A stretch of DNA of 64,000 nucleotides from Chlamydiae bacterium RIFCSPLOWO2_12_FULL_45_20 (GCA_001796285.1 MGMD01000001.1:74143-138142); one strand, 5' to 3'; shown: positions 2,014-52,135, numbered from the stretch's first letter. The notes: generated by a model not told the origin, from the sequence alone. Numbers and translations are program-made.

Positions 2014-2553
2014 ATGAATCACCTAGAGTTAACAAAGCAGTACTGGAAAACACTCTTGCATCCCTCCGATTTGGCGATCGATGCTACCTGCGGAAATGGA
2101 CATGACACGCTTTTTCTAAGCGAGCTCTCTTCTGTGATTTCCTTAGACATTCAAGAGGCCGCTATTCGCAATACGGAGGCTCTATTAGCCTCCAAAGGGA
2201 AAAAAGCCACTCTATACCGCTTAAACCATGCAGATATCGATTCCCTCTCTCTCCCGCACTCCCCTCGCTTGATTGTCTATAACCTAGGATATCTTCCGGG
2301 GGGTGACAAGTCTTTAACGACGCTTCTAGGCACAACGCTTATAAGTGTAGAAAAAGCCAAAACCATGCTTGCGGAGGACGGGGCTTTAAGCATCACATGC
2401 TACCCTGGGCACAAAGAAGGCGCCATCGAAGAAAAGGCTCTTTGCAATTGGGCAGAAAAACTCTCATATAAGGAGTGGCGAGTCTGTCACCACAGATGGA
2501 TCAATCGCACCAACGCCCCGAGTATTCTTTGGATCGAAAAAATAGGAAAGTAG
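2014..2553 (+). CDS. class I SAM-dependent methyltransferase, YtqB/MnmM-like
   Basis: 179 aa. The motif DATCGNGHDTLFLS and the later YNLGYLPGGDK and CYPGH match the YtqB-type rRNA/tRNA methylase family. Confidence 0.8.
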   Translation: MNHLELTKQYWKTLLHPSDLAIDATCGNGHDTLFLSELSSVISLDIQEAAIRNTEALLASKGKKATLYRLNHADIDSLSLPHSPRLIVYNLGYLPGGDKSLTTLLGTTLISVEKAKTMLAEDGALSITCYPGHKEGAIEEKALCNWAEKLSYKEWRVCHHRWINRTNAPSILWIEKIGK

Positions 2554-3546
2554 GTAAAAAGATCCTGCTACTACACCTTGAGAGATAGCCTGCGGTTCCA
2601 CGTTTGTAAAACCCGGATAGGATTGCCTTAAACGTGGATGGTCTACTCGAACCATTTGAATGGATGTCGCAATGGGTCTAATAATCTCCACACAGGAGAT
2701 CCAATCCTTACTTTTAGAAAACGCAAGAAAAAACAGAAACGTCTGGCCTGGATAATGGATTTCTAGGGCTTCTTTTAATCGCCAAAACGCTGAGGGGTTA
2801 TGCGCAGTATCAAAAAGAATGTTCCCTCTTTTTTCAAATCGAAAAGGGGTTTTTGTATCCAGTCCCGCTTCTGAATCTATAGAGAGCATTTTGAGGGCCT
2901 GCTTGGCCAAAGAGCGATTTTCCAGTTCAAAAAACGGCTCTCGCAAAATGGTTGGGGCGTTGGGAAAAAATGGCGCGGCAGTGGGACCCACAAGACAGGG
3001 TACGTGGGGCTTGATAATCCCTCCTTTTTCTTCTGCAACCTCTTCTAACGTGGGGCCTAACTGCTCCAAATGATCATACCCTATCGAAGTAATGATCGAA
3101 AGAACCGGAATAATGACATTGGTTGCATCGAATCTCCCGCCTATTCCCGCTTCGATTACAGCAAAATCCACAGACTCATTACGAAAATAGAGAAAGGCCA
3201 TAGAAGTCAGTACATCAAAAAAAGACAGTTCTGGATCATACACTTCAGCAAGCAGGGTCTCCACAGCCGATTCTGGAATCATTTCTCCATTGATCTGAAT
3301 CCTTTCTCGGTACGTGAAAAGATGGGGGGATGTAAACAGTCCCACCCGATATCCAGCATGCTGTAAACCTGCAGCCACTTTGGTCGCCACAGTACCTTTG
3401 CCATTCGTCCCCGCGATATGAATAGATTTAAAATGCCGGTGAGGGTAGTCTAACGCGCGATCTTTGACTTGCATCGCCTCGAAAGTGACTTGCCCTCGAC
3501 CAGGTAAGGAAAAAATCTTCTCTTCCAGGAATAGAAGCTCTTGCAT
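2464..3546 (-). CDS. folC: folylpolyglutamate synthase / dihydrofolate synthase (Mur ligase family)
   Basis: It has a HIAGTNGKGTVA P-loop, FTSPHL, a ..ITSIGYDHLEQLG.. Mur-ligase core, and DTAHNP. The 3' end overlaps the convergent methyltransferase gene by 90 nt. Confidence 0.85.
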   Translation of the reverse strand: MQELLFLEEKIFSLPGRGQVTFEAMQVKDRALDYPHRHFKSIHIAGTNGKGTVATKVAAGLQHAGYRVGLFTSPHLFTYRERIQINGEMIPESAVETLLAEVYDPELSFFDVLTSMAFLYFRNESVDFAVIEAGIGGRFDATNVIIPVLSIITSIGYDHLEQLGPTLEEVAEEKGGIIKPHVPCLVGPTAAPFFPNAPTILREPFFELENRSLAKQALKMLSIDSEAGLDTKTPFRFEKRGNILFDTAHNPSAFWRLKEALEIHYPGQTFLFFLAFSKSKDWISCVEIIRPIATSIQMVRVDHPRLRQSYPGFTNVEPQAISQGVVAGSFYLLSYFFDPKNTRGVGAIDPSVVTDSPLLI

Positions 3547-3549
3547 AAC

Positions 3550-4407
3550 TCAGGTTCTTTCGATGTTGGGGCTCTTTGAAACCCCACTTTGTAAGAACGA
3601 CTCAAACGTCAAAAGACCTACCCACGAGCAGCCAAGCCTAATATGAGGCTTCAAGGTTCCGTGGTAATCAGAACCCCCTGTTGCAATCAGTCCTCTTGCA
3701 TGAGCTTTATCTAGCCAAGGTTTCTCAAGGGATTTATCCAAATTTGCATAATGGCATTCATATCCGTCAAAAGGAAGATCCAGAAGTTTCCTTAAAAACG
3801 CCCCTTTTTTATAAAAATGGGGATGGGCCAAAATGGCTTTGCCTTTCGCTCGCTGAATCTCTTCGATCACCTCCTGGGGTTTATGTTTCAACCCAGCAGC
3901 ATAACAAGACGCTCCCTCTTTGATATAGAGGTCAAAAGCCTCCTTGATGGAAGAAACAAATCCCTTTTGGATCATTAACTGGGCAATGTGAGGCCTACCT
4001 ATAGTGCGCTTTTGCGCAAAGCTTGTGAGCTCCTCCTCTGAGATCGGCATGTTTTTTTTAAAAAGCTTTTCCAAAATGAGGCGATTACGATCCGTTCTTC
4101 TTTTTTGCATGCGTTCAAGAAAGGTGCGAAAGCTCTGGGACTCCAGATCCAATCCATAACCGAGTATATGAACCGGTATTGTTTCCAGTTCCGAAGAAAC
4201 CTCCACGCCTGTCAGAAGACGAATGGCTAGCTTTTTTGCCTCCTCAACAAGCTCCCCTGTGTAAGCAGCTGTCGTATCGTGATCCGTAATCGACAACCCT
4301 TGCAACCCGGCTCTTTTTGCCATGTGCAAAACTTCGATAGGGGAATCAGTACCATCAGAACAGATCGTATGGCAATGTAAGTCTGCGCGAAACTCAGCGA
4401 TCATCAA
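3550..4407 (-). CDS. PHP-domain metal-dependent phosphoesterase (TrpH/YciV-like)
   Basis: The N-terminus has DLHCHTICSDGT and SITDHDT. The C-terminus has ILAHPH and GGSDYHG. These are the PHP motifs. Confidence 0.8.
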   Translation of the reverse strand: MMIAEFRADLHCHTICSDGTDSPIEVLHMAKRAGLQGLSITDHDTTAAYTGELVEEAKKLAIRLLTGVEVSSELETIPVHILGYGLDLESQSFRTFLERMQKRRTDRNRLILEKLFKKNMPISEEELTSFAQKRTIGRPHIAQLMIQKGFVSSIKEAFDLYIKEGASCYAAGLKHKPQEVIEEIQRAKGKAILAHPHFYKKGAFLRKLLDLPFDGYECHYANLDKSLEKPWLDKAHARGLIATGGSDYHGTLKPHIRLGCSWVGLLTFESFLQSGVSKSPNIERT

Positions 4408-5254
4408 TCATGCGGATTTCAGGTTCGAGAAACACCCCAGTTTGCTGAAAAACTCTTTCTTGCACAAGATGAATCAGTTTTTTGACATCATTGGCACTCG
4501 CTCTCTCTTTATTCACGATAAAGTTCGCATGAACTAAGGAGACTTCTGCCCCCCCTACTCTTAGCCCCTTCAGACCCGCTTGGTCAATCAACGCTCCTGC
4601 AGACATGTGGCCTGGATTCCGAAAAATACAGCCAATACTTTTCTCCGTTAAGGGTTGGGTTTTCACTCTATGGTTAATCATCGCAAGCTGGTCTTCCCTG
4701 GCGGAAAGACCCTTTTGCAACACAAAACTGGCTGCTAGGATCACCCCCCTCATTGTCTGAAATGAAGACTCGCGGTAACCAAATTCCAGCTCCTTTTTCA
4801 AAAAAATTTTTTTAGAAACTCCATCAAAAAATTCCACGGACTCGAGCACCTGACAAGTCTCCCTCCCATTGGCGCCCGCGTTCATAAAAATAGCTCCACC
4901 TACGCTAGCTGGAATCCCAGAAGCAAATTCCAAGCCAGAAAAGTTCTTTTTGGCAGATTGAGCGCCGAGGCGGGAAAAACTGTAACCGGAACCCGCTGTC
5001 ACAAGATTTTTTTCCCAATGACAAAAATCTATTTTATTAAGAAGAACAAGCCCTTGGAATCCCTCGTCGCTAAATAAACAGTTGGACCCCCGGCCAATCA
5101 CCAAAACCGGTCCTTCCAAAGAAAAGGCCTCACACATCTCATCTGCATTTGAAACCTGCACAAAGCGATCAATCGGCCCGCCTACACCTAAGGTGGAAAA
5201 TTCAGAGAGCTTCCTCCCCTTTTCCAATTTCAAGGTCATTTTTATATACCCCAT
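4394..5254 (-). CDS. murB: UDP-N-acetylenolpyruvoylglucosamine reductase
   Basis: FSTLGVGGP..VIGRGSNCLF..GLEFASGIPASVGGAIFMNAGA..GCIFRNP matches the FAD-binding MurB pattern. An alternative start is the ATG at 5239. Confidence 0.9.
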   Translation of the reverse strand: MGYIKMTLKLEKGRKLSEFSTLGVGGPIDRFVQVSNADEMCEAFSLEGPVLVIGRGSNCLFSDEGFQGLVLLNKIDFCHWEKNLVTAGSGYSFSRLGAQSAKKNFSGLEFASGIPASVGGAIFMNAGANGRETCQVLESVEFFDGVSKKIFLKKELEFGYRESSFQTMRGVILAASFVLQKGLSAREDQLAMINHRVKTQPLTEKSIGCIFRNPGHMSAGALIDQAGLKGLRVGGAEVSLVHANFIVNKERASANDVKKLIHLVQERVFQQTGVFLEPEIRMIDDR

Positions 5255-5627
5255 CTACAATCGCATTGATAAATCGAGCGCTCTCCGGAGTCCCAAATTT
5301 GCGACACAACCGAATCGCCTCAGCAATCGATACTTTGGGAGGGATAGCGGTATCAAACATCAACTCATATAACGCAAGACGCAAGATAGACTTTTCCACT
5401 TTCGAGATCCTCTCCAATCGATACTCTGTTGAGGTAGACGCAATAACGGTATCAATCTCCCCCAGCTTGGAACACACCGCATCCACTCGCTCCACCACTT
5501 GAGTGATGGCCGCCCGAGTGGTTTTTAGCTCCGCCATCATGAAGGAAATCACATCCCCATCATCAAATTCACGCGCATAAAGAATCTGCAACACCGCTTC
5601 CCTCATTTTTTGATTGGGTAGCGCCAT
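5202..5627 (-). CDS. nusB: transcription antitermination factor NusB
   Basis: 141 aa. REAVLQILYA..ILRLALYEL..IPPKVSIAEAIRLCRKFG..FINAIVDGV is the NusB fold signature. Confidence 0.85.
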   Translation of the reverse strand: MALPNQKMREAVLQILYAREFDDGDVISFMMAELKTTRAAITQVVERVDAVCSKLGEIDTVIASTSTEYRLERISKVEKSILRLALYELMFDTAIPPKVSIAEAIRLCRKFGTPESARFINAIVDGVYKNDLEIGKGEEAL

Positions 5628-14163: not shown

Positions 14164-14404
14164 TATAGTCGATTAAGTTTAAAATTACATTTTTAGAGCC
14201 TCGCGAAAGCTCCCGCGGGAAATATGATCGAAAGTGGTGGATGAGAGGCTAAAAAGAGCGTACCCATAATGATTTTTCTTAGACGGAAAAAATCAAACAA
14301 AAAGGAATACGCTCATGAAATGGGTATCTTCCGGCTCGCGATATCCAAACCGGTATTGGGCCAATCAATATTCGTCAGCCTAGGGTTAGAGATAAACTCA
14401 GGCC

Positions 14405-14433
14405 TTGACTCTAATTTTTTTGTTTCGTAAGAT
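14405..14433 (+). promoter_or_regulatory. candidate sigma-70-type promoter for the 957-aa ORF
   Basis: TTGACT at 14405-14410, a 17-nt spacer, then TAAGAT at 14428-14433, about 40 nt upstream of the ATG at 14472. This is a sequence match only. Confidence 0.3.
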
Positions 14434-14471
14434 CTCCGATCTTCTTTTTTAGAAGATTAAAGGATCTATCC

Positions 14472-17345
14472 ATGTCAATAGTAATTAGCAGCTCTCTAAC
14501 AACAACCACTATCCCTTGCGCTAAGTGTAACAATGCATTGCTAGTACAATTAAACGTCGAGAAGACAGGAAACATTTTTCGCGCTCTCGTTAATGAAACA
14601 GCCTTCCCATTAAATAACAGTAATTTGGCCTTAAGGATTTCAGCTCGTGGAGGAAACGGATTAGATGGAATAAATGGAATGCACGGAAGAGATGGGATGA
14701 ATGGATCTTCTGGCTCCTCAGCTACCGAACTTTCTATAGGCGGAAACGGCAGTAATGGAACTAACGGAACTGACGGAGGGCCCGGAGGTGATGGAGGTAA
14801 TGGAGGTGATGGAGGTAACGTCATTATGATGGCACCTCAAGAAGCTACAGATCTTTTTATGTTAATTCGTTCTATTGATGTCTCTGGAGGAAAAGGGGGC
14901 CGTGGAGGCAAAGGGGGCTGTGGAGGAAGGGGAGGGAGTGGAGGAGCTGGGGGGAATGGATATTCCTGGTCAACTTATACATATAGGCAAACTGCAGACA
15001 TGGGAACTCTAACCGATATAGCATACCATTCAATGCCAGGAGGACACAGTGGGTTCAATGGATCTTCTGGAAGGGACGGAAGAGATGGAAATAATGGAGC
15101 AGATGGTAGAAGCGGTTCGTACAAATTTGTTGTTTACAAAGACGGGTCTTCAAGGGAATATCAAGACAGATACGATCTTACATTGGAATCATTTTCACCT
15201 ATAAGCACGGAGACAGGAACCTTTGAGCCTGGACAATCAGTTGAAATAGGGGACATACGGGTTTTAAATCCAACTGCCATGCCAACTCCAGTAGTCCCCG
15301 CTTTTGTAACTTTAGCATCATCCCCTCATATTCAAAATGTTAAAGGAATAGAGGTACCGAGTCTTGCTCCAAAGGAAAAACGTACTTTAGAAGGCAAGGT
15401 TTCCTTTGTAATTAGTCCCTTTGAATTTGATCCAGGATCTGCCCAATTTTTAAATTTACGGCTTACAGTGGATCTGATAGCTCAGCTTCAAAGAGTAGGA
15501 GCTTGCTATCCATCTGTACTTAAGCCTTTTTGTAATGTCCGTTACCCCGTTACACTTTATCACAACTCTTCTACAAATGTAACCATAGCAGGAAATCCTT
15601 TCTGCCAAGCATTTTTAGTAAAAAACCATTCTCCCAAACTCTTTGGAGAAGGCTCGCATGGTAGAAAGCTAGCTCTTAGACTTTCTGCAACAAGAGAAGA
15701 TGGGCAGTCTCGCTTGCTGTGCGTACGTTTACGAAGTGGAGAAACACAATCTTTAGATGCTCCTGTTATGATTCCAATAGATAGCCTTTCCAAAGACAGT
15801 CCCTTTTCTTTATCTGGCTCTTTTGTAGTAGATCCATCTGCACCTTCTCACGTGCCTACTAAAATTTTAATTGAACTGTTTTTTCACTGTTTAGATAACT
15901 CTTATAGAGTTATTCAAAGAATCTCTCATCAATTTACTTTCTCTACAGCTTTTGTAGAAGAAGAAAAGACAGGGATTATTCTAGTAATAAACAACCAAGT
16001 TACAAAAAAAGTAATAGATACTTGGAAAAGTTTTGCTGAAAAGTTAAATCGTTCCCTCCAGATATGGGATCAAAGCCTTTATGAGGGAATTGATTTTCAA
16101 GCCTTTTTGCCAAAAGAAAAAACTTCTAACACAACCAGAATCATAGTTCTTTTTAATGAAAAACTCTCAAATGTAGGTAAAAATGCAACAACCTTTTCTC
16201 TGCTATCTAAAGATGCCATAGCAAATGGAACTGTCAAGAGAGTTCATACTTACGTAATAGGAGAGACTTTTCCCATCGAAAGTTTTATAAATCCTCCTCA
16301 AGGATTTGAAAAGAGATGTTATAAAAATCTTACAGACTTTATCGAGGAAGCTTTAAAAATTCCTGCTAATCAGTATTTAAACTTTTATGTAGAGTTTAAT
16401 GTTTTGGAAAGAAGTTATTTTAAGCCAGCACAAAATGATTTAGGTAAAGCTATTTCAGAAATACAAAAAACTTTACACAAATCCTTACCTATGCGTTCTT
16501 TCGAAATTACCATAGACCCAACCCAGCTTACAAAATGGGGTAATGCCGAGAATTTTTTCGGAAGAGACCTCTGGAGATTAGGTGTCATTAAAATTGAGGA
16601 AACTTCGAAAGGTTTGACTACCAAACTAATACACGCACCAGAAAATTTAAGCGCTCTGTCCCATTTTAAAAATACAGTGAAGCTTTGTTCCTTCGAAGAA
16701 AAAATTGAGTATCTTTCCATAGAAGATGCTTCATATAAACAGGCTATTTTAGATACTATTTTATCTGATTTGGTAGATGAAGTTACTATTTACTGGAATC
16801 TGCCATCTAGAGACAATATAAAAAATAAGCAAGAAGCTCTCCCTTGCCTAACTAAATTACTAGCTTTTGTTGCGAGTGTAGAGGAGCAGCTATCTCAAGA
16901 GATACAAGATTTGCTTATTTCATACTGTGCAGTATTAAAAAAAATACAACCATACTTTGTTTTTAGCAATACAAGAGCGCAAGATCTAACAAAATTTGCC
17001 ACCCTATCTATAGAAAATATTTTTAAAGTCCGTTCATTGAACGAATTTCAAAAACAAGTAGATAGTAAATACAAAAACTATAAACAAAAAACAGCAGATG
17101 AAGTAAGAAAAAACGCTCCTTTTTTTGATGAAGTTACCATTAAAGATAACCGCTTAGCTAAACAACATCCTCTCATGGTGACTACCAAAAAAAATAATCA
17201 AGCTGACCTTGTTGTGGCCATTAATTACGACGCTGTAAGAATAAAGCCTGAGCAAGAAGTAAATGATTTGCAGAACAAACTATTGCAGGATCTTTTGAAT
17301 AGATACCCAGAAAACTGGACAGATGACGAGAAAAAAATCTCTTAA
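14472..17345 (+). CDS. large hypothetical protein with four Gly-X-Y triplet blocks (collagen-like periodicity) and an unassigned ~740-aa C-terminal region
   Basis: 957-aa uninterrupted ORF. Residues 60-83, 90-116, 139-163 and 191-217 have Gly at every third position (8, 9, 9 and 9 triplets by my count). No signal peptide is evident, and the N-terminus is Ser/Thr-rich. Confidence 0.85.
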   Translation: MSIVISSSLTTTTIPCAKCNNALLVQLNVEKTGNIFRALVNETAFPLNNSNLALRISARGGNGLDGINGMHGRDGMNGSSGSSATELSIGGNGSNGTNGTDGGPGGDGGNGGDGGNVIMMAPQEATDLFMLIRSIDVSGGKGGRGGKGGCGGRGGSGGAGGNGYSWSTYTYRQTADMGTLTDIAYHSMPGGHSGFNGSSGRDGRDGNNGADGRSGSYKFVVYKDGSSREYQDRYDLTLESFSPISTETGTFEPGQSVEIGDIRVLNPTAMPTPVVPAFVTLASSPHIQNVKGIEVPSLAPKEKRTLEGKVSFVISPFEFDPGSAQFLNLRLTVDLIAQLQRVGACYPSVLKPFCNVRYPVTLYHNSSTNVTIAGNPFCQAFLVKNHSPKLFGEGSHGRKLALRLSATREDGQSRLLCVRLRSGETQSLDAPVMIPIDSLSKDSPFSLSGSFVVDPSAPSHVPTKILIELFFHCLDNSYRVIQRISHQFTFSTAFVEEEKTGIILVINNQVTKKVIDTWKSFAEKLNRSLQIWDQSLYEGIDFQAFLPKEKTSNTTRIIVLFNEKLSNVGKNATTFSLLSKDAIANGTVKRVHTYVIGETFPIESFINPPQGFEKRCYKNLTDFIEEALKIPANQYLNFYVEFNVLERSYFKPAQNDLGKAISEIQKTLHKSLPMRSFEITIDPTQLTKWGNAENFFGRDLWRLGVIKIEETSKGLTTKLIHAPENLSALSHFKNTVKLCSFEEKIEYLSIEDASYKQAILDTILSDLVDEVTIYWNLPSRDNIKNKQEALPCLTKLLAFVASVEEQLSQEIQDLLISYCAVLKKIQPYFVFSNTRAQDLTKFATLSIENIFKVRSLNEFQKQVDSKYKNYKQKTADEVRKNAPFFDEVTIKDNRLAKQHPLMVTTKKNNQADLVVAINYDAVRIKPEQEVNDLQNKLLQDLLNRYPENWTDDEKKIS
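14784..14819 (+). repeat. 4 x 9-bp in-frame tandem repeat (GGAGGTGAT/GGAGGTAAT/GGAGGTGAT/GGAGGTAAC)
   Basis: Read directly from the sequence. It encodes GGD-GGN-GGD-GGN inside the second Gly-X-Y block. Confidence 0.8.
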
Positions 17346-17531
17346 TTTGATCTCTGTCAAGTTATTTTCACTATGATTGTGTGTCGTTTCCTCCGGCCAA
17401 GCTCCAAGCTCAAAATTTTCGAGCGATGGCAAGATCGGTTGTATCCGGAAATGCTTCCCAGGAAAAGCGAGTTACAGCATTTGGCGCGGTCTAAAAGATG
17501 CAATTTTAAACTTAATCGACTATAACAACCG

Positions 17532-19283
17532 TTACCCTCGGTAAATAAGCCCTTTTTGTGGATCGAGGGTGACTTCATCCCCTTCTTTGAGAACCGACAT
17601 GGCTCCATCGGCCCGGCTCATGACAGAAATGTCATAGGTCTTCGCTACAAGAGCTGCATACTTTTCAGAAGCCATATCCCCAATGTAGTTTTGCAAAATA
17701 ACTCCTGCGACAAGCTTGAGAACCGGGAGAAAGAGGTGATTGCAGTGAGAAATAACGACAATTTGCCCTGTGAGTTCCTCGGAGTTGTAGATTTCAGGCG
17801 CTAAGACAAAAACCACTTTGCCTGTCACTTTAGGCCCAAAGCCTTTATGGCCCCGAACAAGAACTTCTCCAATATTTTCCACCCGCATCATATTCGTTGT
17901 CCCTTTCTTCCCAAAAGGCTCGCCTGCAGTCACTACGACGACATCTCCAAAGGAAATCAGCCCCCTCTCAAGAGCAAATTGGCTAGCGGCTGCAAAGGAT
18001 TCTTTCGAATCTTTACACCCCTTCGCAAGCACAGGAATAACCCCCCAGTTAAAGGCGAGCTGATGATAGTTCTTCTCATGCGGAGTGACAGCAATAATCG
18101 GGATCGGAGGTCTTAAGCGAGAAACCAGTCTTGCCGTCCCTCCGCTGGTCGTAAAAGCAAAGATACTCTTGGCATTAGCGCTGTAAGCCGTATTCACGGC
18201 CGCCATAGAAACAGCCGAAGAAACGTCATGGTAATCTTTTTGCGAGTTGGCCCTGAAAAACCCCTGATAGTCAAAGTCTTTTTCTGCCTCCATCACAATT
18301 TCTTTCATCCGCTGGACTGTTTCGATGGGGTACTTCCCAATAGCAGTTTCCCCTGAAAGCATAACAAGAGACGTGCAGTCGTAGATCGCATTGGCCACAT
18401 CGGAAACTTCGGCGCGAGTAGGCCTAGGATTCACAATCATCGACTCGAGCATTTGCGTTGCTGTCACAACGGGCTTACAGGCTTGGTAGCACTTCCGGAT
18501 CATCATTTTTTGCAGTTTCGGAACCAGCGCCAGGTCTACCTCTACTCCAAGATCGCCCCGAGCAATCATCACCCCATCTGAAACCTGGACGATGCTATCA
18601 AAATTTTCAATCCCCTGCGTGCTTTCAATTTTAGCAATCACCTGGATATCAGGTTTCTCCTGCTTAACTAAGAGCGCCTTGATCGTCAAAACGTGGTGGG
18701 CGGAGCGTATAAAGGAAGCTGCAATGTAATCCACGTCGTGTTTACAACCAAACTTAATATCTTCAATATCCGTTTCGGTAAGAGCTGGAAGCGGAATTTG
18801 AGCCCCTGGGATATTCACCCCTTTGCCACTTTTTAAAACGCCCGAGTTTTGTATTTCTACCACCGCACTTTTGTCCGTTTTTTCAATCACCTTCGAGACA
18901 ATATACCCATCGTCAAAAAGAATGTTCATACCGGGCAACATCGCATCGACTACCTCAATCGGATGGATGGGAATCTCATCGAGTTTTTCACTTTCTTTTA
19001 CGACCAGTTTGACCCTTTGCCCCGGCTCTAAGGTGATTTGACCCGAAGGAAGCCTACCCACTCGAATTTTTGGTCCGTGTGTGTCAAGCATAATCGCAAG
19101 GGGTATGTTCTTCTCTTTCCTCGCCTTTTTCAAATGGTTGATCACTTGTAAATGCTCTTTATGCGAGCCATGGCTAAAATTTAATCTAGCTACATTCATT
19201 CCAGCGTCGATCAATGCAAGAATTTTCTCATAAGAGCTGACGGCGGGGCCGATGGTGCAAACAATTTTTGTGCGGGTGTACAT
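17532..19283 (-). CDS. pyk: pyruvate kinase with C-terminal PEP-utiliser-type mobile domain
   Basis: TKIVCTIGPA, NVARLNFSHG, ..MIARGDLGVE.. and MLSGETA form the PK core. An extra ~95-aa C-terminal domain resembles the Bacillus-type PK extension. Confidence 0.95.
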   Translation of the reverse strand: MYTRTKIVCTIGPAVSSYEKILALIDAGMNVARLNFSHGSHKEHLQVINHLKKARKEKNIPLAIMLDTHGPKIRVGRLPSGQITLEPGQRVKLVVKESEKLDEIPIHPIEVVDAMLPGMNILFDDGYIVSKVIEKTDKSAVVEIQNSGVLKSGKGVNIPGAQIPLPALTETDIEDIKFGCKHDVDYIAASFIRSAHHVLTIKALLVKQEKPDIQVIAKIESTQGIENFDSIVQVSDGVMIARGDLGVEVDLALVPKLQKMMIRKCYQACKPVVTATQMLESMIVNPRPTRAEVSDVANAIYDCTSLVMLSGETAIGKYPIETVQRMKEIVMEAEKDFDYQGFFRANSQKDYHDVSSAVSMAAVNTAYSANAKSIFAFTTSGGTARLVSRLRPPIPIIAVTPHEKNYHQLAFNWGVIPVLAKGCKDSKESFAAASQFALERGLISFGDVVVVTAGEPFGKKGTTNMMRVENIGEVLVRGHKGFGPKVTGKVVFVLAPEIYNSEELTGQIVVISHCNHLFLPVLKLVAGVILQNYIGDMASEKYAALVAKTYDISVMSRADGAMSVLKEGDEVTLDPQKGLIYRG

Positions 19284-19326
19284 GAGTGTATGTTACAGGA
19301 ACTCTCTTTTTGATAGAATCTCCGAC

Positions 19327-22300
19327 ATGATTCGATTGAAAAAAGTTTCCGTCCACAACCTCAAGGCAGTCGATTTAGAGTTAGAACCTGGAACCTTCAT
19401 TGTGTTTACAGGGGTTTCCGGCTCAGGTAAATCTTCTTTGGCTTTCGATACGATCTATGTCGAAGGGCAGCGCCGCTACATCGAATCGCTTTCCCATCAG
19501 GCAAGGAGATTTTTGGGAGAGCTCCCTAAACCAGAGGCTGAGAGCATCTCTGGCATCGCCCCGACCATCGCCATTGAACAAAAAACAGCAGGTCGCTCTC
19601 CCAGATCAACAGTGGGAACAATGACTGGGATCTACGACTATTTACGAGTGTTATTTGCCCGGATCGGCACTCCCCACTGCCCCATCAGTAAAGAGCCGGT
19701 CCAAGCCCAAAGCCAAGAAAAAATCATTGCGGAAATCCAAAATCTCAGTCCAGGCACGAAAATTATCATCCTCGCCCCCTTTGTAAAAGGAAAAAAAGGA
19801 CAGTTTAAAGAGGAGTTTTTAGAGCTTCTCTCCAAAGGATTTTTACGCCTTCAAATCGATGGCGAATTTGTCGATTTGAGCGAAGAAGTGACCCTGGATC
19901 CCAATGTAGCACATGATGTCGACATCGTCATCGACCGGCTCGTCGTCAATCCTGACAGCCGATCCAGAATTTTAGAGAGCGTTCAGCTCGCCTTAGAAGT
20001 GGGTCAAGGATTTTTTAGCGTCAACGACACTGTATACTCTCAATTTGCTCACTCCGCCACATCTGGCTTATCCTATGGCCCTTTAGAACCTCACGATTTC
20101 TCCTTTAACCACCCACTGGGCATGTGCCCCACCTGTCAGGGCATTGGGAAACTCGCTCAGTTTACTATGGAAAAAATCATCGATCCGCAAAAAAGTATTG
20201 CCGAAGACTGCTGCTCGATTGCTGGACATTATGATACAGTACGCTACGGAAACATCTACAACAATTTGGCCAAGATATATGGTTTTGATGTAAAAAAATC
20301 GTGGAAAAAACTGTCCCAAGAAGCAAAACAGGTCTTTCTTTACGGTACAGAAAAAAAGTGGACCCGCATGCGCTTCTCCCATCCAACCAAACGGACTCAC
20401 TGGTTTGAATATGTCCATTGGAAGGGCGTGATCCATGAAGCGAGAGAAAGGCTGGCCGCAGCAAAAAGCGACGCCTATCGAAAGAAAATGGGTGAGCTCA
20501 TGAGCCTCGCTACCTGTGCCGATTGTAAAGGGTCTCGTATTAAGCCCTATCCGGCAGCAACCCTTCTTGGAGGGCAAAGCATTCATCAACTCACGGCTAT
20601 GCCTCTAGAAGAGTTTTTGGCATTTTTTCATTCTCTAAAACTTACGGAACTAGAGCACATCATTGGAGATGAGCTGATCAAAGAGCTCAAAGAAAGAGTA
20701 CAATTTTTACTTGGGGTGGGACTTAGTTATCTTTCCCTTGAGCGAACATCCCCCACTTTATCTGGAGGAGAAGCGCAACGAGTCCGCCTCGCCTCTCAAA
20801 TCGGTTCAGGCCTTGTAGGCGCTATTTATGTCCTGGATGAACCCTCGATCGGCCTTCATCCCATTGACCACCATAAACTCATCGCCACCTTAAAACATCT
20901 TCGTGACCAAGGGAATACAGTCATCGTTGTCGAGCACGATCTGGACACAATTTTAAGTGCAGACCGTATTGTAGATGTAGGACCCGGAGCTGGAATCCAT
21001 GGTGGACAGATTTTGCATTTGGAAGACCCTGCATCAATCACAGGGCAATACCTCTTTGGTAAGCTTGCCATTCATCCTCCTAAGAAGCGAAGAAAAGCCG
21101 CAGGGACACTCCTTTTAAAAAACGCCTGTCAAAATAACTTAAAGAATCTCTCCGTCCCCATTCCTTTGGGTGTTTTCGTCTGTATTACAGGAGTGTCGGG
21201 TTCCGGAAAATCATCTTTGATTGAAGATACGCTTTTGCCCGCTTTAAAGACCCGCTCTAATGATTTGGAAGGACTCGAACAGATCGACAAAGTCATTCAC
21301 GTTGATCAATCTCCTATTGGAAGAACCCCCCGATCAAACGCGGCCACCTATATCAAACTCTTCGATTTGATTCGGGATTTTTTTACAGAACTTCCTGAAA
21401 GCAAACTGAGGGGGTTTGAGGCAGGCCATTTCAGCTTTAATGTTAAAGAAGGATCTTGCTCCTACTGTTCTGGCCTTGGGCAGATAAAAATTGACATGGA
21501 TTTTATGGAAGACGCTTGGGCTGAGTGCCCTCAGTGCAAGGGCAAACGCTTTGATCCCGAAATTTTAGCCGTCCACTACAAAGGAAAATCGATTTACGAT
21601 GTGTTAGAGCTCGATGTTGAGCATGCAATCGAACATTTTGATGCAATCCCAGCCATTCGAAACAAGCTAGAACTTTTGCGTAAAGTAGGCCTGAACTACC
21701 TGAGCTTAGGCCAGCCCTCAACGACTCTATCTGGCGGAGAAGCCCAACGGATTAAACTCGCTAAAGAGCTGGTTCGTCCCGCGACCGGGAAAACGATCTA
21801 CATTTTAGATGAGCCCACCACAGGGCTTCATTTCCACGACATTAAAAAGCTAATTGAAATCCTCCAGGAACTGGTCGATCGGGGTAATACAGTCATTGTC
21901 ATCGAACACAGTATGGAACTTATCAAATGTGCAGATTGGGTCATCGACTTAGGCCCTGGCGCGGGGGATCACGGAGGCCAAATCGTCGGTATGGGGACTC
22001 CTGAAAGCATTGCGAAACTCAAAACAGCTACAGGGTTGGCTCTTAAAGGCCTAAAAAGAGAACAAAACACCCCTTCTTCTATGAAAGAACCGAGAGAGAT
22101 CCTTGTTGAAGGCGCGTGCCAAAACAATCTAAAAAACGTGTCGATGAAAATCCCTCGCGGTAAGATAACAGTCTTCACAGGCCCTTCAGGATCTGGCAAA
22201 TCCTCCATGGCTTTTGAAACCCTCTATGCGGAAGGGCAGAGAAGATACACAGAAACGCTCAGCCCCTATGCCAGAGCTCTAGTCAAGCAACTGCCTAAAC

Positions 22301-24729
22301 CGAAGCTTGAAAAAATAGAAGGCCTTTCCCCTTCCATCGCCCTGGAACAAAAAACGGGGGGGCTTAATCCGAGAAGCACTGTAGGCACCATTACAGAAAT
22401 TTACGATCTTTTAAGAGTGCTCTTTGCCCACCTCGGCATCCCCCACGACCCGGTTACAAAAAAACCCATTGGGATCGTCAGTAAAAAAACGATTGTAGAA
22501 ACGATTTTGTCTCTACCCAAAGGAGAAAAAATCCAACTTCTCACACCGATTGTCTTTCAAAAGAAGGAGACCTTTGAAGGGCTCATGGAAAGACTCAATC
22601 GGGAAGGGTATTTGAGAATTCGGTTAAACGGCCAAGTGTATGAGCTAGATGCAAACATCCCGTACGAAAAATTTAAGAAAAATGAGCTTTATCTCGTCAT
22701 TGACCGAATGCTCGTCGATGAACAGGCGGAAAAACGCATCTATGAAGCTCTTTCGAAAGTTGACGAGACGCTCGTGATTGCCAGGCCAAACGAGGATCTT
22801 ACCCTCCATCTTTCCAAGGAAAAAAAGAACTCTCCCCAAACCTTCTCTTTTAACCACGAAGAAGGGATGTGTCCTGAATGCCAGGGGTTGGGAGAAACAT
22901 ACGGTGCCCATCTAGAACAGAACCGCTCGATTCAGCGCTTGTCCATTTACGATGTGATCGACCGTCTGATGAAAGACAAGGGAACCAGCAATACCTACAG
23001 GCTACTAGAGACCTACTTCAATCAAGTAGGAGAAAACAAAGAGATCCTACTTCATGGGGGACCTGAAGTAGAGGTGAAAAAAGGCTTCCACATCAGGTGG
23101 ATCGGTCTACATACTGCGTTTGCTAACGCGGCCCGAATGGGCCATGGAGCCATTCGAGAGGCCATTTTGCCTATGATGAAGGCGAGTCCGTGCCCTGAAT
23201 GCCAAGGAGCCCGTTTGAATGCAAAAGCAAGGCACGTCTTCCTTAACAAGCTCTCGATCCACGATGTTTCTACCCTGAGTATCGAAAAGGCTCGCGCCTT
23301 TTTACAATCGCTAAAATGCCCTATCTATTTGCAAGAAACTCAAGCACAACTACTGAAATACTTAGATTTCCTTCTCTCCATTGGACTTCACTACCTATCT
23401 TTAAGCCGCTCTGCTCCTTCTCTTAGCGGCGGAGAGCTGCAGCGAATCCGCCTTGCTAAACAACTGGGCTCAGGCCTCACATCGTGCCTTTACATTCTCG
23501 ATGAACCTACCATCGGACTCCACCCATTCAATAATGAGTTGTTAAATGACGCGCTTAAGCGTCTCCGAGATCTCGGTAATACCTTGATCCTAGTTGAGCA
23601 TGACCCCATGACCATTCGGGCTGCAGATTACCTATTTGACTTTGGTCCTAAAGCAGGGAAAGAAGGAGGCATGATCACGGCATTCGGCACAATTTCAGAA
23701 ATTGAGAAACATCCCCACTCACTGACAGGAGCCTACCTCAGCGGCAGAAAGAAAGTGCCTATCCCTACCATCAGGAGAACCTTTTCCTCCCCTATTAAGA
23801 TTGAGAATGCGACGCTGCATAACTTAAAAAATATTACCGTAGAGATCCCAACAGCAGCGATCACCTGTCTAACTGGAGTTTCGGGCTCAGGAAAATCATC
23901 CCTCATGAGCTATTTAAGGAGAAAGGACAAAAATTTTGATGCGATCCTCCATATTGACCAAAGTCCCATTGGTCAAACGCCCCGTGCAGATGTCAGTACC
24001 TATTCAGAAGTACAACCCCTTATCCGAGAGCTTTTTGCATCCATGCCGCTCGCCCTTACCAAAGGGCTTTTACCTCGCCATTTCAGCCCGAACCACCTCC
24101 GCGGTATGTGCCGCACTTGCTGGGGGCTGGGTTATAAAACAGTGAACTTACAGTTTCTTCCCTCCGTTCAGATCGAATGCGATGCCTGCCATGGGCATAG
24201 GCTCAACCCTATTTCTCTTGAGGTTCGATACCGTGGCAAACACTTTGGAGAAATTCTTCAGATGACTGTAGAAGAATCACTTATTTTTTTTCACGCGATC
24301 CCTAAAATGGTAAAAAAGCTGGAAATTCTCCGTTCCGTCGGCCTTCATTACCTCAAACTCGGCCAAGAGCTCATCTCGCTTTCTGGGGGCGAGGCGCAAA
24401 GGCTGAGGCTATCTCGCGAGCTTGCGAAAAGGTCTTCTGGGAAAAACCTTTACTTAATCGATGAACCCACCGTGGGGCTCCATCCAGAAGATGTCCTCAA
24501 GCTCCTCGCAATCTTCCACCGCTTGGCCGATAAAAAAAACACCCTGGTCATCATCGAACATAATGTGGATGTAATAGTCAATGCAGACTATATTATAGAC
24601 CTAGGCCCTGATGCAGGGGATGCGGGAGGATACGTCATAGCGCAAGGGACTCCCGAAGAAGTAGCTCTTTCTAAACAATCAAAAACAGCAAAATATATTC
24701 GAAAGCTGCTACAATCCAGCAAGAGGTGA
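19327..24729 (+). CDS. uvrA: excinuclease ABC subunit A, double-length (tandem UvrA-UvrA fusion)
   Basis: There are four Walker A motifs: GVSGSGKSSLAFDT, GVSGSGKSSLIEDT, GPSGSGKSSMAFET and GVSGSGKSSLMSY. There are four LSGGE signatures and Zn-finger Cys pairs. I chose the ATG at 19327 (MIRLKKVSVHNLK). Confidence 0.95.
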   Translation: MIRLKKVSVHNLKAVDLELEPGTFIVFTGVSGSGKSSLAFDTIYVEGQRRYIESLSHQARRFLGELPKPEAESISGIAPTIAIEQKTAGRSPRSTVGTMTGIYDYLRVLFARIGTPHCPISKEPVQAQSQEKIIAEIQNLSPGTKIIILAPFVKGKKGQFKEEFLELLSKGFLRLQIDGEFVDLSEEVTLDPNVAHDVDIVIDRLVVNPDSRSRILESVQLALEVGQGFFSVNDTVYSQFAHSATSGLSYGPLEPHDFSFNHPLGMCPTCQGIGKLAQFTMEKIIDPQKSIAEDCCSIAGHYDTVRYGNIYNNLAKIYGFDVKKSWKKLSQEAKQVFLYGTEKKWTRMRFSHPTKRTHWFEYVHWKGVIHEARERLAAAKSDAYRKKMGELMSLATCADCKGSRIKPYPAATLLGGQSIHQLTAMPLEEFLAFFHSLKLTELEHIIGDELIKELKERVQFLLGVGLSYLSLERTSPTLSGGEAQRVRLASQIGSGLVGAIYVLDEPSIGLHPIDHHKLIATLKHLRDQGNTVIVVEHDLDTILSADRIVDVGPGAGIHGGQILHLEDPASITGQYLFGKLAIHPPKKRRKAAGTLLLKNACQNNLKNLSVPIPLGVFVCITGVSGSGKSSLIEDTLLPALKTRSNDLEGLEQIDKVIHVDQSPIGRTPRSNAATYIKLFDLIRDFFTELPESKLRGFEAGHFSFNVKEGSCSYCSGLGQIKIDMDFMEDAWAECPQCKGKRFDPEILAVHYKGKSIYDVLELDVEHAIEHFDAIPAIRNKLELLRKVGLNYLSLGQPSTTLSGGEAQRIKLAKELVRPATGKTIYILDEPTTGLHFHDIKKLIEILQELVDRGNTVIVIEHSMELIKCADWVIDLGPGAGDHGGQIVGMGTPESIAKLKTATGLALKGLKREQNTPSSMKEPREILVEGACQNNLKNVSMKIPRGKITVFTGPSGSGKSSMAFETLYAEGQRRYTETLSPYARALVKQLPKPKLEKIEGLSPSIALEQKTGGLNPRSTVGTITEIYDLLRVLFAHLGIPHDPVTKKPIGIVSKKTIVETILSLPKGEKIQLLTPIVFQKKETFEGLMERLNREGYLRIRLNGQVYELDANIPYEKFKKNELYLVIDRMLVDEQAEKRIYEALSKVDETLVIARPNEDLTLHLSKEKKNSPQTFSFNHEEGMCPECQGLGETYGAHLEQNRSIQRLSIYDVIDRLMKDKGTSNTYRLLETYFNQVGENKEILLHGGPEVEVKKGFHIRWIGLHTAFANAARMGHGAIREAILPMMKASPCPECQGARLNAKARHVFLNKLSIHDVSTLSIEKARAFLQSLKCPIYLQETQAQLLKYLDFLLSIGLHYLSLSRSAPSLSGGELQRIRLAKQLGSGLTSCLYILDEPTIGLHPFNNELLNDALKRLRDLGNTLILVEHDPMTIRAADYLFDFGPKAGKEGGMITAFGTISEIEKHPHSLTGAYLSGRKKVPIPTIRRTFSSPIKIENATLHNLKNITVEIPTAAITCLTGVSGSGKSSLMSYLRRKDKNFDAILHIDQSPIGQTPRADVSTYSEVQPLIRELFASMPLALTKGLLPRHFSPNHLRGMCRTCWGLGYKTVNLQFLPSVQIECDACHGHRLNPISLEVRYRGKHFGEILQMTVEESLIFFHAIPKMVKKLEILRSVGLHYLKLGQELISLSGGEAQRLRLSRELAKRSSGKNLYLIDEPTVGLHPEDVLKLLAIFHRLADKKNTLVIIEHNVDVIVNADYIIDLGPDAGDAGGYVIAQGTPEEVALSKQSKTAKYIRKLLQSSKR

Positions 24730-25195: not shown

Positions 25196-25465
25196 TTATA
25201 ACTCTCGAGTCTCTTGCTCAAGCTTTAATGCGTGTTCTTGAAGAATTGCAACCGTTTCTTTGTCTTCTGGATGTTGCAGAAATCTCAATACATCCATGTA
25301 AAGAAGCTCTGCTTCCATTGCAAGAGGACCTCCTATTTGAGCCGCCATCGAGAGAATGTCATCCATTTGAGCCTTACAGGTTCCTCTACGAGCAGGGTTA
25401 AAAAGATCTTTAAACATGGCTCGCAACTCATTGCCTAGCTTGCAATATAGATCCATATCACCCAC
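25196..25465 (-). CDS. hypothetical protein (89 aa)
   Basis: Its start overlaps the stop of the upstream 595-aa ORF by 8 nt, which suggests co-translation. No recognisable motif. Confidence 0.45.
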   Translation of the reverse strand: MGDMDLYCKLGNELRAMFKDLFNPARRGTCKAQMDDILSMAAQIGGPLAMEAELLYMDVLRFLQHPEDKETVAILQEHALKLEQETREL

Positions 25466-27245
25466 CTGTCTTTGAATAGCTTCTCATTACGTTACGGTGC
25501 GATTCAATCAATCCTCTCAACGTTGCGGCTCCAGAGATAAATTTTCCTATGTTTTCCGCTTCTTGTTGTTCCATATCGGGGTATTTTCTCAAAGTCAAAG
25601 CCCTCTGGACAAAATGGCGCAAAAATCGATTGGCCGAGTGCTCTTGGATAATAATCTGACTTAACCGCTGAAAGCCCTCATACGTTTGGGGATCTTGAAG
25701 AGAAAGTCCCAGCTGTAAAGCAAGGGTCGGCCATTCTTCAACGGTTTGAAAAAAAGCTTCATCAACCCATTCCTCTTCCTGAATAGGAAGATTATACAAA
25801 AATCCGCTAGTCATCCCTCGAATACAGTGCAAGGTACCTTGGTATTCAGGAAGACGATTTTCTACCAGCGCAACGAGATCTTTCAGAAAGTATCTCGCAT
25901 GTTCCCTGCCATCATAAAAAAAAGTCTTTCCCTGCGATATAGCCTCAGAAAAGGACTGATTTCCACGAATCCCTACCCAATTACCGCTTAAGGATAAAAG
26001 AGCCCTGAAATCGTTTTGAGAAAGTTCTTTAGGAGAGAGGATACGGAGCTTCTTACCGGAAGCAGAAATCGGGATCAAATGCAAACGATCCCCAAGGTGA
26101 ATTTCGATTTCCTGTACTCCCAATTCCCACTCTAGGATCTCTTTTCCTTTCTGCTTTTGCCTTTCCACAAACTGCAGAAACCACCCCAAGTCTGGCACAC
26201 AAAGATCAATGCTTCGATCGTCTTGCTGAAGTGACTTTAAAAGAGCGTGTAAATAGATGGCCCCGCCTATTTGCGTGGAAAGATAGGCAAGATAAAACAA
26301 GTTTTCTGGATTCCTCATCCGTAAAAGATCTGGATTCGATATATCACGCCAAGAAGCTTCGAGCGGCTTTCTCACAAGCACTCCCTTTTCTAAAAAGTGG
26401 AGCCCCATAGAATGGTTATGAGATTTTGGATGAAACCAATTAGACTCTAAAAACCCATACTCTCCCACAGATTCGATGGTCGGCATAGTCCCACCATCCA
26501 TTCCCTTCAACTTATCTACCATAGAATCAAAATGAGGATAATACGTTGGGAGTTGGACAATGAGATCAGAAGACCTAAGAAGAGAAAGAACCTCGGGAGA
26601 TACGGCTTCAAGAGGGCAATCTTTGGCATACGCAATCAAAATCGAATTCTCAGGCCTGAGCAAGCGATCTGCCATTGTTTCAGGAACTAATGCCACAAAA
26701 TGAAGGGCCAAATCAGCAAAGCGCGTTTTTAAAAGGCGCAATACTTCTGACGCCGCAATATAATCCCCCAATCCGTCATTAATCACCCAAGTAAAGAGTG
26801 TGACCTTTCCTGCAATTTCACAGGTGGAATAAAGACTGTAAAGGGCGGGGATGCAGGCATGCTTTTTTAAACTAGGAAGGTGGGTGAAAGGATGTTTCAC
26901 ATAAGATTGGCTGGGAAAATTGCGATGATACATCCTGGGAAGGCCACGATAGATGCGGGGAAAATAACGCCATAAACCAAGCTCAACAAAATCCTTTTCT
27001 GGAAATGCTTCCATTAGTACTTTTTCTAAGTAGACAACCCCCTTGTCGCGAAAAAAGTTCTGATAGAGCTCTATGACCTCATCTAAGGGCGTCTGATGGT
27101 TCGGTTCTGTCAACCTTTGAAGAAGAGCCTTGAGACATTCATCTGAACCAGGATCCCAACCTTGCTCTTGCACCCGTTTTTCCACTTGACCTTTCAAGAG
27201 CCTGAGTAGCTCCGCATGAAATAGACTGATTTCTTGCACACACAA
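25458..27245 (-). CDS. hypothetical protein, possible GT-B (EarP-like) glycosyltransferase core
   Basis: 595-aa clean ORF. The landmarks TLFTWVINDGLGDY, LFYLAYLS and VGIRGNQSFSEAISQGKTFFY resemble the EarP/GT104 landmarks (F-C-x-VVDNYGDIG, LFAYEN, VRGEDSFVRAQWAGKP). This is by eye only. Confidence 0.7.
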   Translation of the reverse strand: MCVQEISLFHAELLRLLKGQVEKRVQEQGWDPGSDECLKALLQRLTEPNHQTPLDEVIELYQNFFRDKGVVYLEKVLMEAFPEKDFVELGLWRYFPRIYRGLPRMYHRNFPSQSYVKHPFTHLPSLKKHACIPALYSLYSTCEIAGKVTLFTWVINDGLGDYIAASEVLRLLKTRFADLALHFVALVPETMADRLLRPENSILIAYAKDCPLEAVSPEVLSLLRSSDLIVQLPTYYPHFDSMVDKLKGMDGGTMPTIESVGEYGFLESNWFHPKSHNHSMGLHFLEKGVLVRKPLEASWRDISNPDLLRMRNPENLFYLAYLSTQIGGAIYLHALLKSLQQDDRSIDLCVPDLGWFLQFVERQKQKGKEILEWELGVQEIEIHLGDRLHLIPISASGKKLRILSPKELSQNDFRALLSLSGNWVGIRGNQSFSEAISQGKTFFYDGREHARYFLKDLVALVENRLPEYQGTLHCIRGMTSGFLYNLPIQEEEWVDEAFFQTVEEWPTLALQLGLSLQDPQTYEGFQRLSQIIIQEHSANRFLRHFVQRALTLRKYPDMEQQEAENIGKFISGAATLRGLIESHRNVMRSYSKTGG

Positions 27246-46331: not shown

Positions 46332-46377
46332 ATATTCCCATAGAGATATGCACGACAACCCTTGTGCATATCTTTTT

Positions 46378-46595
46378 TTAAGTCTCTTGCATTGGGTATT
46401 AGACGTAATTTTCAAGGAAGATACTGCACAAGCAAAGACTGGATTCATTGCTGAAAATATGGCGTTTTTTAGACGATTGTCGATGAATGTCATAAAAGTC
46501 GCAGTCCGGATCGTGGGTTCGCCGATGCTCGACGATTTTGCACGTATGAACCAAAATATTTGAGAGGAATTTTAGGCAAGATATTTATGGGCTAA
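46378..46595 (+). pseudogene. ISAs1-family transposase, C-terminal remnant with frameshift
   Basis: LHWVLDVIFKEDTAQAKTGFIAENMAFFRRLSMNVIK resembles the ISAs1 C-terminus (HW..ENKLHW.LDV.F.ED). The tail YLRGILGKIFMG* is in a different frame. About 300 aa of the N-terminal part are absent. Confidence 0.7.
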
Positions 46596-50247: not shown

Positions 50248-50287
50248 AGATGAAAAACCTGGAGAAAGTTCGAGAATACAATTTGGT

Positions 50288-52120: not shown

Positions 52121-52135
52121 GGTGAGTCAGCGAAG

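Follow-up and report, generated by a model that had tools for sequence, protein, structure and literature searches.

Bundles of glycine-rich polyproline-II (PPII) helices are known as a folded domain in only about half a dozen natural families. Known glycine-rich bundles of PPII or polyglycine-II (PGII) helices are those in snow-flea antifreeze protein (sfAFP), the Obg N-domain, gp38 of phage S16, ALK/LTK, and acetophenone carboxylase (bioRxiv 10.1101/2023.11.25.568672; PMC13243192), and the "sails" of PGRS proteins are PGII structures predicted by AlphaFold (PMC9436101). Here, I describe a gene at positions 14472..17345 of a 64,000-nucleotide stretch of Chlamydiae bacterium RIFCSPLOWO2_12_FULL_45_20 (GCA_001796285.1, MGMD01000001.1:74143-138142), which is called the window below. 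Its 957-residue product carries four glycine blocks that, as judged from a structural model, most likely form an intramolecular antiparallel PGII/PPII helix bundle or sandwich. Judged by sequence, the protein belongs to the uncharacterised DUF7932 family, in which it is divergent. A first-pass annotation, made from the DNA alone, had left the family without a name; it turned out to be a large family that is catalogued in Pfam but uncharacterised. The features of the locus are as follows.

14472..17345, + strand: coding sequence with an ATG start, 957 amino acids (aa) and a stop codon; divergent full-length DUF7932 member by sequence
14472..14534, + strand: aa 1-21, lineage-specific Ser/Thr-rich leader, delimited by alignment; predicted local distance difference test score (pLDDT) 62-68
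14643..15176, + strand: glycine-rich module, aa 58-235, four Gly-X-X/GGx blocks interleaved with predicted beta elements
14649..14720, + strand: Gly block 1, aa 60-83, with phase-0 Gly conserved at 0.99-1.00 and 6 of 8 invariant
14739..14819, + strand: Gly block 2, aa 90-116, delimited by Gly phase and conservation
14886..14960, + strand: Gly block 3, aa 139-163, GGx throughout, with basic third positions K, R, K, R
15042..15122, + strand: Gly block 4, aa 191-217, Gxx
15177..15509, + strand: first immunoglobulin (Ig)-like beta-sandwich (Pfam DUF7932), aa 236-346, motif EPGxxVxxxxxxVxNxxxMPTP
15510..15956, + strand: second beta-sandwich, aa 347-495, homologous to the first, motif VxNxSxxxxG...R398
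15957..16649, + strand: alpha/beta region, aa 496-726, a predicted flavodoxin-like beta-alpha unit followed by more strands and helices, with no relative of known function
16650..17342, + strand: predicted alpha-helical domain, aa 727-957, with conserved K744, D766, and E770 and low confidence at about aa 890-925
14405..14433, + strand: sigma-70-like promoter match TTGACT-17-TAAGAT, 38 nucleotides (nt) 5' of the ATG

Glycine blocks and the DUF7932 family

Most of the glycine of the protein (54 of 79 residues) lies within the first 240 residues. In-phase Gly runs cover residues 60-81 (eight triplets), 90-114, 139-163, and 191-215 (nine triplets each), a second Gly register exists at 103-115 and 140-161, and the linkers separating the blocks are 6, 22, and 27 residues long. 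In total, 48 Gly residues stand in period-3 runs of at least four, while 2000 shuffles of residues 50-225 gave a mean of 4.1 and a maximum of 23. Thus, the four blocks of collagen-like periodicity that had been read from the DNA, together with their linker lengths, are real features of the sequence.

The only Pfam domain found in the protein was DUF7932 (PF25560) at aa 247-342 (E value 1.4e-7; 32.4 bits against a gathering cut-off of 27). I searched for homologues with a word index of 5.8 billion proteins and, exhaustively, with HMMER against 1.84 billion cluster representatives (50% identity). The word index gave 385 homologues (best E 1e-75 at 29% identity, with E values of 1e-75 to 1e-60 and coverage of 70-89% among the top ones), nearly all of which are about 950-1200 aa in length and have DUF7932. 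With HMMER, 934 clusters passed E<=1e-3, 497 passed E<=1e-10, and 187 passed E<=1e-30, and the identity never exceeded about 31%. Thus, the window protein represents a deep, isolated branch of a sizeable family. It is collinear with bacterial members over aa 41-890 in the best stretches, with a Dictyostelium member over aa 78-770, and with a Tetrahymena member over aa 191-774, and the collinearity runs from the first Gly block to at least residue 770, where the "SDLxDE" motif is shared. The shared order is Gly blocks, two beta-sandwiches, the alpha/beta region, and the helical region with "SDLxDE". The window protein had no match in NCBIfam, PADLOC, or PHROGs, and a single-protein search of genome contigs and viral contigs gave no close relative. 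In the library searched, no paper was found on DUF7932 or on Tetrahymena TTHERM_00320360, nor was such a family found in the PPII-bundle literature.

Family alignments of 53, 70, and 111 sequences were analysed, in which the overall identity is only 20-30%. The invariant columns are nearly all block Gly residues (G60, 66, 72, 75, 78, 81, 93, 96, 140, 152-161, 191-197, and 209), and the window protein retains all of them. Besides Gly, it retains the family invariants E252, N266, P273, P359, and R398. Family-wide, blocks 1-3 are GGx: each of the two Gly residues reaches a conservation of at least 0.9, and the third residue is polar and variable (D/N/R/S/K; entropy about 3 bits). Block 4 is Gxx family-wide. 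There are no gaps inside the Gly blocks of about 110 homologues, so that the block lengths are fixed. Gly conservation dips in the middle of the blocks (105-109, 145-148, and 203-206), and these dips may mark turns.

The blocks might instead be disordered, low-complexity Gly-rich linkers of the RGG type or condensate-forming regions. Block 3 reads GGKGGRGGKGGCGGRGG, and the best single-sequence matches in the PDB are indeed RGG or GS segments (the RGG tail of 40S S2 and designed GS linkers; E 0.018-0.05). However, Gly is invariant by position among the gap-free homologues even at 20-30% identity, and AlphaFold2 placed the blocks with confidence. The first-pass annotation had named low-complexity linkers lacking conservation as a finding that would overturn its view of the blocks, and the outcome was the opposite, the blocks being the most conserved part of the family. 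Therefore, the blocks are structural and low-complexity linkers are excluded as their explanation; I would give the disordered reading very little credence.

The window protein departs from the family on the second Gly of the GGx triplets. L64, I67, and M70 take its place in block 1, as do S94, T97, and T100 in the first half of block 2, and the family has a second Gly where block 1 of the window protein has L, I, or M. About 85% of the members have two additional N-terminal Gly blocks starting with "DxSGxxGxxG", which are absent from the window protein and from a minority of the others; in the window protein, the leader of aa 1-21 stands in their place. Among 111 members, the loss of at least four of eight scored second-face Gly residues was found only in members without the N-terminal blocks, namely, the window protein, P0007, P0008, and P0054. 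In members with the N-terminal blocks, the mean was 0.34 non-Gly residues at the eight scored positions. This association fits helix-on-helix packing against the missing helices. As for charge complementarity, block 2 is acidic and block 3 is basic on average, and the per-sequence correlation was weak (r -0.29 to 0.11), so it was not used as evidence.

The bacterial members belong to Myxococcota (Polyangiaceae, Kofleriaceae, Sandaracinus, and Labilithrix), Bdellovibrionota, Bradymonadales, a planctomycete, Endozoicomonas, and a few Chlamydiota. Eukaryotic members occur in Tetrahymena, Stylonychia, Dictyostelium, Planoprotostelium, Rhizophagus, and protist transcriptomes. A Terrestrivirus protein (A0A3G4ZNF8) matches the full model with E 7.5e-36. 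Thus, the phyletic check that had been proposed for Chlamydiota, amoebae, and giant viruses was positive for all three: Chlamydiota (P0082 at locus L087 and probably P0010 at L089), amoebae (Dictyostelium and Planoprotostelium), and a giant virus (Terrestrivirus). In a rough neighbour-joining tree, the window protein lies in a clade with ciliates, Endozoicomonas, and chlamydial members, outside the clade of Myxococcota and Bdellovibrionota.

Many eukaryotic members (P0253, P0277, P0251, P0255, and P0203) have a PH domain after about residue 820, which the bacterial members, including the window protein, lack. A member from Dictyostelium cf. discoideum (P0257) showed no PH domain in the Pfam scan. 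When long homologues were scanned for fusions, only weak Pentapeptide and PH matches were found. Forms of about 600 aa (P0074 and P0231-P0241) are 40-48% identical to the chlamydial P0082 and lack the whole C-terminal half. Thus, the N-terminal module of Gly blocks and sandwiches is an independent unit. In the Myxococcota clade (P0012-P0117), a conserved "M(x)(P/V)YRE" motif lies at the start of many members, about 25 residues before the first Gly block, and this motif could be a sorting or processing signal.

Predicted fold of the protein

A full-length AlphaFold2 model was built as a monomer from the 70-sequence alignment (mean pLDDT 84.4; predicted template modelling (pTM) score 0.71). In aa 58-115, 137-163, and 189-215, 10-residue windows average pLDDT 86-96 (most of them >90), and DSSP assigns neither H nor E. 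A beta-alpha-beta element (aa 116-136) lies between the Gly segments, and beta-hairpins lie at 164-188 and 216-230, between or after them. A confident model that is neither alpha nor beta, combined with the strict period-3 Gly, resembles the known glycine-rich PPII/PGII bundles. In such a bundle, Gly would point inward and the third residues would lie on the surface, and the short beta elements would cap the helices; the geometry would differ from a collagen triple helix.

Two other period-based readings can be compared with the model. Strict period-3 Gly over eight or nine triplets in four blocks is also what would be expected of a collagen-like protein, in which the Gly-X-Y repeats of three chains wind into a trimeric stalk, as in Scl or BclA. 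A search of the PDB sequences with the family profile gave nothing significant, and a few collagen peptides are among its very weak matches (E 3.5-9.6). However, the Pfam Collagen model did not match at E<=1; the family pattern is GGx with two Gly per triplet; Pro takes only 2-10% of the non-Gly positions, with one Pro in the blocks of the window protein; the blocks are short and broken by conserved folded inserts; and a monomer model satisfies them at pLDDT >90. A collagen stalk is, thus, most improbable, in agreement with the earlier remark that the blocks are unlike a classical collagen stalk. The second reading is an RTX-like or PGRS-type Ca2+-binding parallel beta-roll of GGxGxD motifs, to which the Asp/Asn-rich third positions of blocks 1 and 2 would be suited. 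This is extremely improbable, since the period is three instead of that of the nonapeptide (GGxGxDxUx), the hydrophobic residue at position 8 is missing, block 2 is wholly free of hydrophobic residues, and DSSP assigns no strands to the blocks.

The glycine module is followed by two sandwiches. Alignment of the first to the second by hhalign gave a probability of 82% (E 1e-5), and both have a CARDB-like "PGE..V.N.G/S" signature. The hidden Markov models (HMMs) of CARDB (PF07705) and DUF11 had no Pfam match at E<=1, and the sandwiches are assigned to DUF7932. Two CARDB-type beta-sandwich stretches had been proposed at about aa 252-273 and 297-313; Ig-like sandwiches are indeed predicted here, but both stretches fall in a single DUF7932 domain and the CARDB assignment was not matched. 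A Foldseek search of the PDB with the whole model found only tandem Ig-like matches (PAD4, FnBPA, and integrins), with template modelling (TM) scores of <0.15.

More than 450 residues after the sandwiches had been left without assignment, and this remains so after modelling and searches by Foldseek, in Pfam, and in PDB sequences, which found no relative. A separate model of aa 491-957 had pLDDT 82.3 and pTM 0.80, and its Foldseek search against the PDB gave nothing at E<=1e-3. The C-terminal profile by itself found nothing significant in Pfam or among PDB sequences. In a Pfam scan of 24 C-terminal halves, no family matched more than two members and no TIR match was found. No homology could be detected between the two parts of the alpha/beta region. 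The conserved residues of the C-terminal half are mostly W, P, G, and L, in addition to N507, D533, S535, K744, D766, and E770; within the alpha/beta region, N507, W518, W532, D533, S535, N562, and G597 are conserved. No catalytic constellation is visible among the conserved C-terminal residues, and there is no conserved Glu in aa 496-625.

Is the alpha/beta region a cryptic enzyme or signalling domain, such as a TIR-like NADase or a pseudo-receiver, which would make the protein a stand-alone conflict or defence factor? The nearest small-domain likenesses found by Foldseek are the TIR domain of Brucella BtpA (probability 0.75-0.80; TM score on target 0.47-0.49) and CheY-like receivers, and mobile or defence-type genes adjoin some homologues (a MukFEB-like cluster and Uma2; AAA_14/DUF4143; IS110/IS4). 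However, all the E values of these likenesses are at least 0.39; therefore, only a generic flavodoxin-like fold is indicated. Moreover, no conserved Glu, Asp, or His is found at the location of a TIR or receiver active site, PADLOC gave no match, the neighbourhoods are not conserved, and the Sec-exported members of the family misfit an NAD-consuming enzyme. I consider such a domain quite unlikely. In summary, the collagen, RTX, disordered-linker, and TIR readings were rejected, each being contradicted by specific tests.

The PGII domains characterised so far all bind something, be it ice, the ribosome, a receptor, or a cytokine. By analogy with them, a non-enzymatic binding or scaffold role is the most likely one for the window protein, and the few conserved polar residues of the C-terminal half, with no recognisable active site, point to a non-enzymatic mode. 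The glycine helices would form a rigid, flat, hydrophilic platform that serves as a binding or assembly surface; the Ig-like sandwiches would be a spacer holding the platform; and the C-terminal region would serve for partner binding or oligomerisation.

Genomic setting, transfer, and export

The window belongs to a Chlamydiota genome. Its pyk gene (pyruvate kinase) is 74-80% identical to those of the closest Chlamydiota/Chlamydiae metagenome-assembled genomes (MAGs). The best NCBIfam match of its LpxL is PRK05906, which I take to be the Chlamydia-type LpxL. The order lpxL-rsmE-slot-pyk-uvrA, where the slot holds the DUF7932 gene in the window, is kept wherever the flanks are present, and lpxL, rsmE, and pyk occur together in 39 of 80 Chlamydiota loci. 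No homologue was found in any of the 80 loci by tblastn or by the family HMM on six-frame translations. The slot between rsmE and pyk (14164-17531 in the window; compared in L007-L086) is about 80 bp long at its shortest and about 8 kb at its longest, and its cargo varies by lineage: three efflux-type genes (L008), a Fic gene (L036), and a leucine-rich repeat (LRR)-like gene (L043). The closest relative (L007) has a YD/Rhs-like open reading frame (ORF) there, and orphan ORFs with F-box-like N-termini are numerous. In Chlamydiota at large, this slot is a hot spot for insertions.

As had been noted from the DNA, the gene is AT-richer than its flanks. The GC content of the part encoding aa 244-957 is 0.353, compared with 0.45-0.47 in rsmE, pyk, and uvrA. 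Among the 43 long ORFs in the window, this one has the lowest GC content at third codon positions (GC3), 0.265; the remaining 42 have a mean of 0.426 (standard deviation 0.068). This outlying composition and the variable slot without homologues suggest a lineage-specific acquisition, and the gene was probably acquired by horizontal transfer.

The chlamydial homologue P0082 lies on a 2.1-Mb contig (L087), where its neighbours nusB-murB-PHP-folC are 45-62% identical to Chlamydiae MAG loci. Their order is the same as that at 5627..2512 of the window, and the DUF7932 gene of P0082 comes after folC. In the segment 8888-13318 of L087, a DUF4143 fragment and transposases of the IS110 and IS4 families come directly after the DUF7932 gene, an arrangement that suggests a mobile context for this copy. 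P0010 (L089) is probably chlamydial too. With the window protein, both share only about 24% identity.

The gene had been credited with a plausible promoter of its own. The TTGACT-17-TAAGAT match is present, and a Shine-Dalgarno-like AAAGGA lies 8 nt 5' of the ATG. However, five sigma-70-like sites were found where shuffling predicts 8.4; there is no enrichment, and the match adds no evidence for a promoter. On the strand opposite the Gly blocks, there is a 137-aa Pro-rich ORF (14411..14824, - strand; PPSPPLPPSPPGPP...). It was rejected as a gene and is a shadow ORF, because it results from reverse-complemented GGN codons.

A few other features of the window may be recorded. The uvrA gene (19252-24729, + strand) has a fused, duplicated form of 1825 aa, and the ORF as called overlaps the start of pyk (17532-19283, - strand) by 32 bp. 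Since relatives align only from about residue 20-27, the real start of uvrA probably lies downstream of the one called. A second stretch of low GC3 (0.27-0.37 against a window mean of 0.43) is found at 45807-57939, encoding a BNR_2 sialidase-like protein (47677-48687), an Rce1-like CAAX protease, two TetR regulators, an FAD monooxygenase, and an SDR protein. It may be another acquired island. Neither Pfam nor NCBIfam has a match for a 595-aa ORF (25458-27245, - strand) that lies beside an MsbA-like ABC transporter.

Is the protein exported? As the first-pass annotation had noted, there is no Sec signal peptide: no Sec-like hydrophobic N-terminus was found (maximum 12-residue hydropathy 1.36), nor was any transmembrane segment. 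The first 25 residues include eight Ser/Thr and no acidic residues. The protein is a plausible candidate for secretion or effector status. It was considered that the Ser/Thr-rich N-terminus directs export by a type III secretion system (T3SS), and that the effector mimics or interferes with host DUF7932/PH-domain proteins in the amoeba cytosol. The Chlamydiota genome and the foreign composition of the gene are consistent with this, as are the Fic and LRR-like genes carried in the accessory slot by relatives, the homologues in Dictyostelium, Planoprotostelium, ciliates, and Terrestrivirus, and the lack of a Sec leader or transmembrane segment. In addition, the first 21 residues are unique, Ser/Thr-rich, non-acidic, and of low model confidence, and the chlamydial P0082 and P0010 likewise begin with short Ser/Thr-rich leaders. 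However, richness in Ser/Thr lacks specificity and is promoted by AT-rich codon usage, no gene resembling a chaperone lies next to the DUF7932 gene, non-host-associated bacteria hold most of the family, and the PH domain of many eukaryotic members is missing. Thus, a T3SS effector of this kind is possible but doubtful; it overlaps the explanation favoured below and adds the steps of export and mimicry to it.

A broader proposal may be added. DUF7932 would be an unrecognised, widespread class of PGII/PPII bundle, the longest and most conserved module of this kind known, exchanged among amoebae, ciliates, giant viruses, and protist-associated bacteria, and the chlamydial copy would be a secreted mimic engaging a host PH-domain DUF7932 pathway at membranes. 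The bacteria exchanging the family would then be those preying on or living inside protists. I regard this as speculative and rather unlikely.

On balance, I favour the explanation that the window protein is a divergent, probably transferred member of DUF7932 with a glycine-helix bundle and a non-enzymatic binding or scaffold function, and that the chlamydial copy may be host-directed; this seems moderately probable to me. Host direction is suggested by the accessory slot of the gene and by the occurrence of the family in amoebae, ciliates, and a giant virus of the amoeba type. Several points weigh against this explanation. The protein departs from family positions conserved at 90% (D248T, G268T, and Y460H) and from the second-face Gly of blocks 1 and 2, and it could be functionally diverged or decaying. 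The bundle is read from DSSP, pLDDT, and sequence logic. The blocks run for eight or nine triplets in one phase, while known PGII helices have three or four and are thus exceeded two- to threefold in length, so that each block may be one helix or two. Among the matches listed, there was no significant sequence or fold match to a solved PGII protein (sfAFP, Obg, gp38, ALK, or acetophenone carboxylase). The function is deduced solely from the architecture and the absent catalytic motifs. No conserved gene neighbour was found in eight loci of six homologues. Localisation in the family is mixed, with Sec-type leaders in about 15% of the homologues and none in about 85%. Most members occur in free-living predators of the Myxococcota and Bdellovibrionota, which weakens the host-directed view; the profile had been described as fitting an intracellular or amoeba-associated bacterium, and the family proved not to be specific to intracellular bacteria.

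Comparison with known systems

If the fold prediction holds, about 930 sequence clusters across bacteria, protists, a fungus, and a giant virus are added to the glycine-helix proteins. An accessory foreign gene with relatives in hosts (Amoebozoa and ciliates) and in their giant viruses has the typical profile of a candidate effector.

The Gly-X-X/Gly-Gly-X grammar of the blocks is shared with sfAFP (PDB 2pne/3boi), in which six antiparallel PPII helices form two layers with Gly inward (bioRxiv 10.1101/2023.11.25.568672). The family profile aligned in register with 2pne, but not significantly (E 0.058); the likeness, as far as the sequences go, is analogy without homology. While sfAFP is a stand-alone ice binder of 81 aa with helices of about 10 residues, the window protein is a multidomain protein of 957 aa whose blocks of 24-27 residues are interleaved with predicted beta elements. 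In the gp38 tip of phage S16 and T-even phages (PDB 6F45), a Gly-rich PGII sandwich is a rigid platform displaying variable binding residues (PMC13243192, PMC12892980). Its helices have 6-9 residues, its hypervariable loops bind, and it is positioned at the tail fibre's tip; it has no sequence or Foldseek match to the window protein. Gly-rich PPII helices with beta elements also bind the ribosome in the N-domain of Obg/CgtA and a cytokine in ALK/LTK (bioRxiv 10.1101/2023.11.25.568672), while the window protein has no GTPase or kinase context. The match to the human Obg homologue MTG2 is at chance level (E 0.74).

Other resemblances concern single features. Bacterial collagen-like proteins (Scl1/2 and BclA; PF01391) also have Gly at every third residue, but the window protein and its family have GGx instead of G-P-X, short interrupted blocks, and a predicted intramolecular fold. 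The sandwiches share with CARDB/DUF11 Ig-like domains the beta-sandwich and a strand motif of the "PGE..V.V.N.G" type, and the Foldseek neighbours include a DUF11 protein of Tupanvirus (E 8e-8). Membership in the chlamydial Pmp family was rejected, since the window protein has neither GGA(I/L/V) or FxxN repeats nor an autotransporter domain.

The PGRS domains of mycobacterial PE_PGRS proteins share the GGx grammar and the inward Gly with the blocks, without homology to the window protein, and some PGRS proteins have a C-terminal functional domain after the PGII sandwich (PMC9436101). The PE secretion domain of these proteins is absent from the window protein. PGRS domains have 7-54 helices of three or four triplets, are polymorphic, and tolerate insertions and deletions, whereas the block lengths of DUF7932 are fixed. 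Such long fixed blocks with a clean GGx/Gxx pattern, which may correspond to inner and outer helix faces, would be useful for understanding and designing the PGII fold. DUF7932 is not categorically new, since it already has a DUF entry and its predicted fold class is a known one; what would be new, if the model is right, is an undescribed large family using a rare fold class in an unusual long-block form.

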